Positions 35,866 through 36,768 of a DNA stretch of 39,167 nt are shown one piece after another. Below the pieces are notes generated by a model. It was not told where the DNA came from. It saw only the letters and a program-made list of their open reading frames with translations, and ran no database searches. Origin of the DNA: Phycisphaerales bacterium (GTDB taxonomy: Bacteria; Planctomycetota; Phycisphaerae; Sedimentisphaerales; Anaerobacaceae); the NCBI GenBank assembly GCA_003533825.1, contig DQCG01000609.1, positions 1 through 39,167 of the forward strand, read 5' to 3'. The position numbers and the translations under genes were made by a program. How positions within the stretch are numbered: the first letter of the stretch is position 1; each line of letters opens with the position of its first letter.

Positions 35866-36768
35866 ATGGTTCGTGGCGAAAAAACCAAGGGAATGGTAGT
35901 TATGCTGTTGTTTTTTGGTACGGCGATCGTAAATGCTGCACCAACGATTAACGATAGCGATGGCGATATCTTCCTCTGCGCCAGGCCTTCAGGTTTATAC
36001 ATATATCCTCACTGCAGGCAAGATATAGACCACGTTACCGGACTATTCAATTCACACTTAGATTCCATCTCTAAGGAATTTCACAGGCCACCTGTTAAAA
36101 ATGGCAAGTTGCAGAATACGTATATGGGCGTAAAATCATTGCCCCCAGCGCCAAAAACACTGCTGATGGTCCTGGTTGGATTCCTGTGTGTATCACTGGT
36201 AAAGGATCGCAGAGTTTGGCTTGCGGCATTGGCAGGCCTGCTATGGGCCGGCCAGGCCGGAGTCTCTATTTTGCCGCAGTTGGCTGCAAATATAGCCGGC
36301 AGAGGAAGAAGTGAAAAACAATCATCTGATCATCAGGTTGCTCACCTAACCGGGCAAAAACATCCATATCGTCTGCGAAGTGATATTGAAGGTACATGCT
36401 ATATCGGCCTGCTGCGTCATTTAGAAGGAATTCCTAAATCCGGGAAATCATTTATACCGAACACAATAGTAAGGCATAAATTTCAACAGGGAACTGAGAG
36501 AATTTCAATATGGTCTTCCTTTCGAACATGTTCCATATCTAAGTCTTTGCAAAGACTTGCTAATCATAAGTTTTTTTCTTTACCTAAGAACAACCTTCAA
36601 AAAGAGAATCGTTATTGTGGAGAAGAATCCCATTCCGCAATAGCGGCACTTTCTTCCTGCCTATTCCAGGTAACAGAGTGCCTGGCTCCAGGTGCCAGGC
36701 AACATGTCCTTTATTCATCATCATTTAATATTGCCAGCCTGGCCCGAGGTCCGCCGAATTTAAAATAA
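35866..36768 (+). CDS. hypothetical secreted/membrane protein with an internal PEP-CTERM-like segment
   Basis: RBS GAGGAG. Signal-peptide-like MVVMLLFFGTAIVNA-AP. Internal SLPPAPKTLLMVLVGFLCVSLVKDRR at aa 91-116, then a second hydrophobic segment and a ~170-aa basic, Ser/Cys/His-rich tail. No family recognised. Confidence 0.5.
   Translation: MVRGEKTKGMVVMLLFFGTAIVNAAPTINDSDGDIFLCARPSGLYIYPHCRQDIDHVTGLFNSHLDSISKEFHRPPVKNGKLQNTYMGVKSLPPAPKTLLMVLVGFLCVSLVKDRRVWLAALAGLLWAGQAGVSILPQLAANIAGRGRSEKQSSDHQVAHLTGQKHPYRLRSDIEGTCYIGLLRHLEGIPKSGKSFIPNTIVRHKFQQGTERISIWSSFRTCSISKSLQRLANHKFFSLPKNNLQKENRYCGEESHSAIAALSSCLFQVTECLAPGARQHVLYSSSFNIASLARGPPNLK
36136..36213 (+). other. internal PEP-CTERM-like tripartite motif (P-A-P, hydrophobic helix, basic cluster)
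   Basis: SLPPAPKTLLMVLVGFLCVSLVKDRR. Compare the genuine C-terminal signal of the next gene, [27 protein letters not shown]. Confidence 0.45.

Follow-up and report, generated by a model that had tools for sequence, protein, structure and literature searches.

Why does a reading frame that carries a PEP-CTERM-like sorting signal in its middle, and not at its end, continue well beyond it? The question is raised by a gene of a Phycisphaerales bacterium (Planctomycetota, Sedimentisphaerales; GenBank assembly GCA_003533825.1) located at positions 35866-36768 of contig DQCG01000609.1, the 39,167 nucleotides (nt) of which were analysed as a whole and are referred to here as the window. The open reading frame (ORF) exists as an initial annotation had described it, with a signal peptide, an exported segment, the internal element LPPAPKTLLMVLVGFLCVSLVKDRR, a second helix and a tail. 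It stands beside a GerE/LuxR-type solo regulator, as was also stated there, and its surroundings in the window form a complete exosortase/exopolysaccharide (EPS) locus. Two answers had been considered, namely a cleavage by exosortase that would turn the protein into a signalling or regulatory device, and a small PEP-CTERM protein extended by error. From the present analysis, the continuation of the frame past the basic cluster of the element is best explained by an invariant RGPP tetrapeptide located 3 codons before the stop codon. The gene does look like a regulatory device, and it is probably an RGPP-type translation-arrest leader heading operons of PEP-CTERM cargo genes.

The gene belongs to a family without name. 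A search of 5.8 billion proteins yielded, at E<=0.01, 511 homologues whose coverage stays at ~100% for identities as low as ~35%; they are mostly 240-320 amino acids (aa) long, carry no Pfam domain, originate from Planctomycetota metagenome-assembled genomes (MAGs) and bear 'hypothetical' as their only label. An exhaustive profile search resolved the family into 437 clusters at 50% identity, and a scan of GTDB genomes yielded 73 loci, nearly all in MAGs of the Phycisphaerae/Sedimentisphaerales type, to which the family is restricted among Planctomycetota. The whole protein matched no Pfam or NCBIfam model at E<=1, and a sequence-profile search of PDB returned noise only (influenza HA2, E>0.1). 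Alignments of 25 and 114 members revealed three conserved modules separated by variable linkers. Module (a), K-S-L-P-P-V-P-G-x-L-L-M-V-L-x-G-F-L-C-V-S-L-V-K-D-R-R-x-W-L-A-A-L-A-G-L-L-W-A-G-Q-A-G-x-x-x-L-P-Q-L-A, covers the two hydrophobic segments. Module (b), R-L-R-S-D-I-E-G-T-x-Y-I-G-L-L-R-H-L-A-G-I-P with its YIGLLRHLAGIP motif, persists in the members that diverge most. Module (c) is a C-terminal block of ~42 residues ending in F-S-P-A-F-I-F-x-x-L-A-R-G-P-P, and its length is about that of the nascent chain held by the ribosome exit tunnel. Several MAGs contain 2-3 family copies (L012/L017/L051 in DATKYR, L071-L073 in CAZOMV, L014/L015, and two copies in L046), each copy heading its own PEP-CTERM cargo array; in the CAZOMV copies RGPP is replaced by RAPP and the N-terminal domains are unrelated.

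RGPP is found once per protein in 114/114 aligned members, and exactly 3 residues come after it in 92/114. When 264 family proteins were considered, the motif was RGPP in 206, RAPP in 7, RSPP in 6 and HGPP in 5, and exactly 3 residues followed it in 162 of 227. Neither RGPP nor RAPP occurred in 280,112 aa of other long ORFs of the same loci, and the sole RGPP/RAPP of the window in all six frames is the C-terminus of the family gene. RGPP was reported as the most robust arrest sequence among RAPP-like motifs in several contexts, with no rescue by elongation factor P, and as the most avoided tetrapeptide across bacterial phyla (PMC12992588). It is enriched near the C-terminus of secretory or transmembrane (TM) proteins of <300 aa that are followed on the same strand by genes of diverse function, and 7/7 such RAPP/RGPP proteins of Streptomyces stalled (PMC12992588). 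The variants HGPP, HAPP, QAPP and RGPP belong to the 'RQH' arrest family (PMC10987492), RSPP is partly permissive for arrest (PMC10987492, PMC12992588), and the properties of the RAPP/RGPP motif are described further elsewhere (PMC10951233). The spectrum observed in the family (R/H, then G/A/S, with PP fixed) therefore coincides with the published permissive arrest spectrum. Exosortase and PEP-CTERM are mentioned neither in the RAPP/RGPP arrest papers nor in the supplements consulted, and a literature search linking 'exosortase' with 'arrest peptide' found no paper.

The gene that follows is almost always of one kind. In 60 of 62 evaluable loci the next gene on the same strand encodes a PEP-CTERM protein, at a median gap of ~115 nt (210 nt in the window), and it is often the first of an array of 2-7 PEP-CTERM genes; a cargo gene came next in 0/81 cases when control tetrapeptides near stop codons were taken. 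Among loci with enough upstream sequence, a GerE solo lies upstream in 52 of ~86, and the GerE solo and a gene for a PrsT-like tetratricopeptide repeat (TPR) protein lie directly upstream in roughly 60%. An exosortase gene is present 5 or 9 kb upstream in 38 loci, the distance being ~9.5 kb in the window. The link with the LuxR solo put forward by the initial annotation thus holds in the window, where the two genes are adjacent, but it is looser across the family (~60% of loci) than the link with cargo. Second or third copies devoid of GerE, TPR or exosortase neighbours still head cargo arrays, and one extra copy follows a type II secretion/pilus-like operon (L015).

The end of the protein was also found alone, in mini-ORFs of ~50 aa (L035:3554-3718 and L058:3427-3573; a third one, L035:7431-7727, has 98 aa and continues past the motif). 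They consist of a hydrophobic N-terminus and FSPAFIFARWARGPPxPT, with the stop codon directly after in 2/3, and they are located ~70-130 nt upstream of PEP-CTERM genes with the same kind of stem-loop after them as described below for the long form. Their sequence suggests minimal arrest peptides, which may have arisen from the long form or given rise to it. The functional unit would thus be an arrest module, then a leader, then PEP-CTERM cargo, and the sorting-signal-like hairpin is its usual, not obligatory, N-terminal part.

In many relatives the leader between the two genes contains a bipartite stem-loop 18-30 nt past the family stop codon. In flavour A, the lower stem UUCAAAC/GUUUGAA and the upper stem GAGUGU/ACACUC carry the loop AUUCGCGAAA. 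A fuzzy search with the motif GAGTGTATTCGCGAAACACTC detected 18 copies in 1.12 Mb, 16 of them 18-30 nt after a family stop; the two exceptions (L052, L059) are within the last 25 nt of C-terminally extended ORFs, and their spacing from RGPP appears unchanged. A covariance model found 21 plus-strand copies and much weaker scores on the minus strand, the locations including L026:1671-1727, L034:10614-10670 and 19 other loci. Pairing was possible in 81.5% of cells versus 31-51% in slid controls, and the covariation score of 0.253 (versus at most 0.114) was reached by 0/500 shuffles. Flavour B, with stems AACCUCC/GGAGGUU and GGAGGGUC/GGCCCUUC that include G-U pairs and with the similarly palindromic loop AUUGCGCGCA, was seen by eye in at least 15 loci as well as after mini-ORFs (e.g. 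L011, L001, L035:3725-3775). The palindromic loop, UUCGCGAA or UUGCGCGCA, could allow kissing dimers or the binding of a dimeric protein. The stem-loop is not known to have been described as a leader RNA motif, and an Rfam scan confined to positions 35200-37100 of the window gave no match at E<=1.

Other explanations of the leader were considered. A DNA palindrome acting as a GerE operator is less favoured than an RNA hairpin in view of the G-U pairs, the compensatory changes between flavours and the weak minus-strand scores; the palindromic loop may still have some role as DNA. No conservation was seen for a small ORF that begins at the GGAGGTTGATG arm (M then stop, MGF then stop, or 15 aa). 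No intrinsic terminator was predicted between the family gene and the cargo gene, and a Rho/rut-type leader is unlikely because the spacer contains more G than C (skew +0.26). Sequestration of the cargo Shine-Dalgarno (SD) sequence in the style of SecM is unsupported because an accessibility test on 57 loci, given below, was negative. Finally, the 95% conservation of the leader among four close relatives is uninformative because their genomes are 80-95% identical throughout.

The internal element shows the tripartite layout of a sorting signal, LPPAPK / LLMVLVGFLCVSLV / KDRR, i.e. a Pro-containing motif, a TM helix and a basic cluster, in which P93, P96, G105, F106 and D114 are invariant. In the window segment, K and T take the place of the G and A of the family consensus (PAPKT vs PVPGA), and divergent members (LPAVPGAILMGLVGFLCVSLVRDRK) are closer to the genuine signal than the window copy. 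When the profile of the internal segment was compared by hhalign with 174 genuine local signals, a match of 90.6% probability (P 1.3e-6) was obtained over 23 ungapped columns that keep PxPG and the RR of the basic cluster in register; the controls gave P 0.067 for the reversed segment, P 0.31 for the family signal peptide and P 0.15 for the second helix. The family-level resemblance to the PEP-CTERM signal exceeds chance, and the element pointed out by the initial annotation is real and conserved across the whole family. With individual sequences the resemblance fades. With E<=10 as the limit, the window segment still matched neither TIGR02595 nor PF07589; TIGR02595 is matched by only 6 of 55 family members (best E 0.0075), and the best individually scored member reaches 14.6 and 14.5 bits, below the curated cut-offs of 16 bits (TIGR02595) and 20.7 bits (PF07589). 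The curated models that match the segment at all are nearly always PEP-CTERM-type sorting-signal models.

The sorting signal of this lineage is nearly invariant among 191 C-terminal tails of unrelated cargo proteins from ~80 loci, and far more uniform than the generic TIGR02595 model. A tight hidden Markov model (HMM) of these lineage tails gave 60.6 bits to the neighbouring cargo gene and up to 65 to genuine signals, as against -0.3 for the window segment and a family maximum of 8.8. Since the score of the internal segment on this HMM is at noise level, the relationship between the segment and the lineage tails is visible only by profile-profile comparison, and for the same reason the segment would be a mimic and not a cognate signal. 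Its position differs as well: in the window 184 residues follow it, and in the family 90-187 residues separate it from RGPP, whereas PEP-CTERM domains end at a median of 3 residues from the C-terminus and matches with long tails were held to be probably non-functional (Haft 2006, PMC1569441). Taken as sequence, the internal segment is thus best described as a conserved sorting-signal mimic, not a PEP-CTERM domain. A minority second type of PEP-CTERM signal, IPEPATICLLGLGCLLLRRKRTL, co-occurs with the near-invariant one in this lineage.

A mechanism may be proposed on these grounds. It follows from published work on the motif that, when the ribosome stalls at RGPP, the hairpin resembling a sorting signal would already have left the ribosome for the membrane, together with the signal peptide and the exported N-terminal part. 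During such a stall, the nascent leader might offer its PEP-CTERM mimic to the exosortase. The fate of this sensor part, by Sec translocation and/or by docking to or processing by exosortase, might set the length of the stall, and engagement or processing by free exosortase would release it. The duration of the stall, or the release to the stop codon, might then act through the leader RNA on cargo expression or on translation near the membrane; these two couplings are the weaker steps of the scheme. The base of the stem lies ~8-10 nt after the stop codon and, judged by footprint geometry, a stalled ribosome should leave the stem-loop intact while a terminating ribosome should invade it. A released ribosome would therefore reach the stop codon and open the stem-loop, and the cargo genes would be expressed, or translated at a membrane site, only from that moment. 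In relatives with the stem-loop, the logic would be 'sensor handled, so cargo on', the reverse of SecM, and would amount to a checkpoint fitting the supply of cargo to the sorting capacity. That the conserved mimic reports on exosortase is a tentative suggestion, less secure than arrest itself. It is equally doubtful, if conceivable, that the protein is the first monitoring substrate for a sortase-type sorting pathway, with release of the stall by exosortase gating cargo expression.

Several observations weigh against arrest and its control from the membrane. The arrest point is located ~150 residues (range 90-187) past the membrane hairpin, so insertion of the hairpin cannot pull the nascent chain. 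The regulated genes are cargo and not machinery, unlike for SecM, MifM and VemP. The leader of the window did not match the stem-loop covariance model and folds no better than shuffles (z 0.33); its only candidate is a weak hairpin at ~36816-36834, with a weak consensus hairpin of -1.6 kcal/mol in its own clade. In 57 loci the SD/start region of the cargo gene was not predicted to pair with the arrest-site footprint, and holding this footprint unpaired changed SD accessibility in 2/57. With its 300 aa the window protein stands at the top of the size range taken in the published screens (<300 aa); most family members have 240-320 aa, and mini-ORFs ~50 aa. For the last 45 codons, the ratio of nonsynonymous to synonymous substitution rates (dN/dS) among four close relatives gives noisy values of 0.36-5, based on few changes. 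Finally, the hydropathy of helix 2 is borderline (1.55) and basic residues are present on both of its flanks, so that the tail may lie on either side of the membrane; its translocation would hinge on helix 2 being membrane-spanning or not.

The main rival is a plain small membrane protein, bitopic or hairpin-shaped, in which RGPP would be incidental to translation and act as a binding or degradation motif. Such a protein might be an accessory or scaffold for exosortase or EPS export, or a chaperone of cargo anchors. The hairpin is extremely conserved and shows small-xxx-small packing motifs, which suggests a specific membrane partner: W118 and P137 of the second hydrophobic segment are invariant, L125, G132 and others nearly so, and AlphaFold2 places helices at aa 115-130 and 136-144 with a break at GQAG. 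Moreover, many RAPP-like motifs do not stall (PMC10987492), and an SD-sequestering structure was not found in the 57 loci. The rest of the prediction fits less well with a folded protein, as the model obtained from the 114-sequence alignment is mostly disordered (mean predicted local distance difference test, pLDDT, 50; predicted template modelling score 0.20), with helices only in the signal peptide, at aa 63-72, 97-110, 115-130 plus 136-144, and 180-186. The signal-peptide-like N-terminus (hydropathy peak 1.95, AlphaFold2 helix at aa 7-23) has nearly invariant A24, P26 and T27, and the exported segment holds one short conserved helix and an EFxKPP motif, the whole segment being replaced in divergent members. 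Above all, the substitutions tolerated in the motif (R/H; G/A/S; PP fixed) equal the published permissive arrest variants, its constant spacing of 3 codons before the stop codon and the constant interval between the stop codon and the covarying RNA hairpin are hard to explain for a motif of the mature protein, and the mini-ORFs that keep only the C-terminal module still precede cargo genes. A membrane protein of this kind is therefore rather unlikely.

A cleavage of the internal signal is less probable again. In this scheme, exosortase would transfer the ~65-residue peptide like cargo, and the remaining fragment made of the first TM helix, KDRR, helix 2 and the tail, retained in the membrane or set free from it, would signal to the GerE/LuxR solo. 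It is in line with the in-register profile similarity to genuine signals, with the nearly exclusive PEP-CTERM type of the curated models that match, with the exosortase of the locus and with the GerE solo found upstream in many loci, and the conserved tail motif could be a binding site. It agrees poorly with the contrast between the almost invariant lineage signals and the -0.3 bits of the internal segment (family maximum 8.8), and long-tailed PEP-CTERM matches were considered probably non-functional (Haft 2006, PMC1569441). The GerE linkage is looser than the cargo linkage and extra copies lack GerE, the presumed 'cargo' part is the least conserved and can be replaced, and the invariant RGPP with its three codons would be left without reason. 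Cleavage-and-signalling would be compatible with arrest, the two not being mutually exclusive.

The reality of the long frame was addressed by homologues and by substitution patterns. Every complete member covers profile positions 1-291 in one ORF (~80 loci), the frame stays open through indel-rich spacers in all loci examined, and not one of the 511 proteins or ~80 loci ends after the KDRR cluster. In 62 locus-derived genes, the entropy of conserved columns is close to zero at the first two codon positions and reaches 1-1.9 bits at the third; free third-position variation was seen in the membrane part, in both tail motifs, in the F283-L292 block and in R294, G295, P296 and P297. The dN/dS values, computed by region among the four close relatives, are 0.4-1.2 for the exported segment, 0-0.25 for the internal module, with many synonymous changes, 0-0.06 for the second hydrophobic segment and 0.3-0.84 for the variable spacer, or 0-0.1 for the two membrane helices versus 0.4-0.9 for the tail. 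The tail is thus less constrained overall, yet its motifs are held at the protein level. The family gene is a genuine, full-length, conserved coding gene. Only the tail GC content of 0.38-0.40 and the raised dN/dS of the tail would speak for an error around nt 36214 (lost stop, frameshift or faulty sequencing) that lengthened a small PEP-CTERM protein, or for a tail conserved as RNA; this reading is excluded by homologues that all read to the same C-terminal motif, by the open frame, by the coding pattern of the tail columns and by the absence of an Rfam match.

The features of the window that matter here are listed below.

Features of the family gene and of its locus in the window (nt positions on contig DQCG01000609.1)
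Feature	Position	Strand	Remarks
Exosortase (EpsH domain aa 381-635) with N-terminal nucleotidyltransferase/left-handed beta-helix (LbH) domain	24368-26335	+	Pfam/NCBIfam scans
Wzz/tyrosine-kinase protein	26431-28908		window exosortase/EPS locus
Priming sugar transferase (Bac_transf)	29014-30732	+	window exosortase/EPS locus
PrsT-like TPR protein, 1392 aa	30753-34931		window exosortase/EPS locus
GerE/LuxR-type helix-turn-helix solo, 107 aa	34934-35257	+	upstream of family gene
Family gene (ORF under study)	35866-36768	+	ATG 35866, TAA 36766-36768, 300 aa
Signal-peptide-like N-terminus, aa 1-25	35866-35940	+	K-rich n-region, hydrophobic core, ...VNA-AP
Exported N-terminal segment, ~65 residues, aa 26-90	35941-36135	+	poorly conserved
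Internal PEP-CTERM-like module, aa 92-116, LPPAPKTLLMVLVGFLCVSLVKDRR	36139-36213	+	LPPAPK, TM helix LLMVLVGFLCVSLV, basic cluster KDRR
Second hydrophobic segment, aa 117-146, VWLAALAGLLWAGQAGVSILPQLAANIAG	36214-36303	+	TM helix or re-entrant helical hairpin
Conserved tail motif RLRSDIEGTxYIGLLRHLxGIP, aa 169-190	36370-36435	+	alignments, codon entropy
Spacer variable in length and sequence, aa 191-255	36436-36630	+	gapped, unalignable; pLDDT <50
Conserved C-terminal module, ~42 aa (xAI...CLAP..xQ...F-S-P-A-F-I-F..LA-RGPP)	36631-36756	+	proposed arrest sequence
RGPP codons CGA GGT CCG CCG, R294-P297	36745-36756	+	then 3 sense codons (NLK) and TAA
Leader between family gene and cargo gene	36769-36978	+	210 nt
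PEP-CTERM cargo gene, 219 aa	36979-37638	+	genuine C-terminal signal at nt 37555-37635

The exosortase of the window is presumed to be the enzyme for the PEP-CTERM signals of the same locus. Its fusion to a nucleotidyltransferase and a left-handed beta-helix recurs in related loci, and so does the LbH-bearing priming Bac_transf glycosyltransferase. Between the GerE gene and the family gene lies an AT-rich spacer of 608 bp (35258-35865, GC 27-30%), with overlapping palindromes at 35274-35319 and promoter-like hexamers at 35640-35668; its stretch 35260-35319 is poorly conserved even among close relatives. Within the family protein, the tail after aa 146 comprises 154 residues and is basic and Ser/His/Cys-containing. 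A tblastn search of the family ORF against the window and a repeat search revealed no relevant paralogue or repeat. A weak reverse-strand self-match is due to an inverted repeat, GCCTGGC-TCCAGGT-GCCAGGC at 36679-36699, within the codons for CLAPGARQ, which is probably incidental because C-L-A-P is conserved at the protein level. Downstream, the cargo ORF read from ATG 36979, which has a good SD sequence, begins with ~50 residues including an extra hydrophobic stretch before the signal-peptide-like segment KTAVCLSVVMLLFGGLSTPANA (36979-37130). The second cargo gene of L002 (9755-10666) bears a comparable extension. Such a stretch may be an extra N-terminal element, or translation may truly start elsewhere. 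Further on, positions 37850-38674 of the minus strand encode a multi-pass membrane protein of 274 aa without Pfam or NCBIfam match. Conserved in ~60% of related loci, it is encoded there on the opposite strand, with the cargo array on one side and a Poly_export (Wza-like) gene on the other, and it is likely a further uncharacterised component of this exosortase system.

To our knowledge, exosortases are widespread and almost uncharacterised biochemically, and we know of no reporter of their activity. If the proposal is true, a nascent-chain sensor equipped with a substrate mimic would offer a genetic read-out of exosortase function in the form of stall release. Translation arrest that senses force or engagement would extend from Sec and YidC to a sortase-like system, and arrest peptides could gate cargo rather than machinery. 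At the level of annotation, a family of 437 clusters, so far 'hypothetical' and without Pfam or NCBIfam model, is now defined, and internal PEP-CTERM-like matches need not mean broken genes.

How does this family compare with systems already described? The plan of the PEP-CTERM domain (TIGR02595/PF07589), Pro-x-Pro followed by a hydrophobic helix of ~15 residues and then a basic cluster, recurs here in the register of the local signals, and the family shares with PEP-CTERM proteins a signal peptide, an exported segment and an exosortase in the same locus. Unlike this domain, the internal segment stays below the curated cut-offs, lacks the core of the lineage signal, is followed by a second conserved helix and lies 184 residues from the C-terminus instead of a median of 3. 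An analogy may also be drawn with XBP1u, a pausing peptide of eukaryotes through which its mRNA is tethered to the membrane of the endoplasmic reticulum. By pure analogy and without homology, a hydrophobic segment combined with a C-terminal pause could keep the polycistronic mRNA of the cargo genes at the membrane, next to the exosortase; the bacterial evidence for such tethering that we know of is limited to suggestions for SecM.

The closest likeness is to the RAPP/RGPP arrest peptides (ApdA, ApdP, 'RQH', CruR and the S. lividans set; PMC7897499, PMC10987492, PMC10951233, PMC12992588). In both, R-(A/G)-P-P stands few residues before the stop codon and the same variants RAPP, HGPP and RSPP are permitted. 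Both also have an N-terminal localisation signal (here a signal peptide and two hydrophobic helices), a spacer that is disordered and variable, conserved residues immediately ahead of the motif and a downstream gene on the same strand, and there is no mutual similarity outside the motif. The present family differs by preceding PEP-CTERM cargo in exosortase loci, by its length (~240-320 aa), by a strongly conserved two-helix membrane module together with a second conserved motif, and by an arrest that is predicted from sequence.

In the same way as in SecM, VemP, MifM and CliM, the sensor part would be a substrate, or a substrate look-alike, of its own pathway, and the proposed arrest site near the C-terminus is followed by a structured leader RNA. 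Substrates of the SecM, VemP and MifM type regulate machinery genes (secA, secDF2, yidC2) by melting a stem that sequesters the SD sequence. Here, on the contrary, the downstream gene is cargo, the test for SD sequestration was negative, and the stem-loop of the relatives lies downstream of the footprint of the stalled ribosome, a geometry which suggests that it is the terminating ribosome that opens it.

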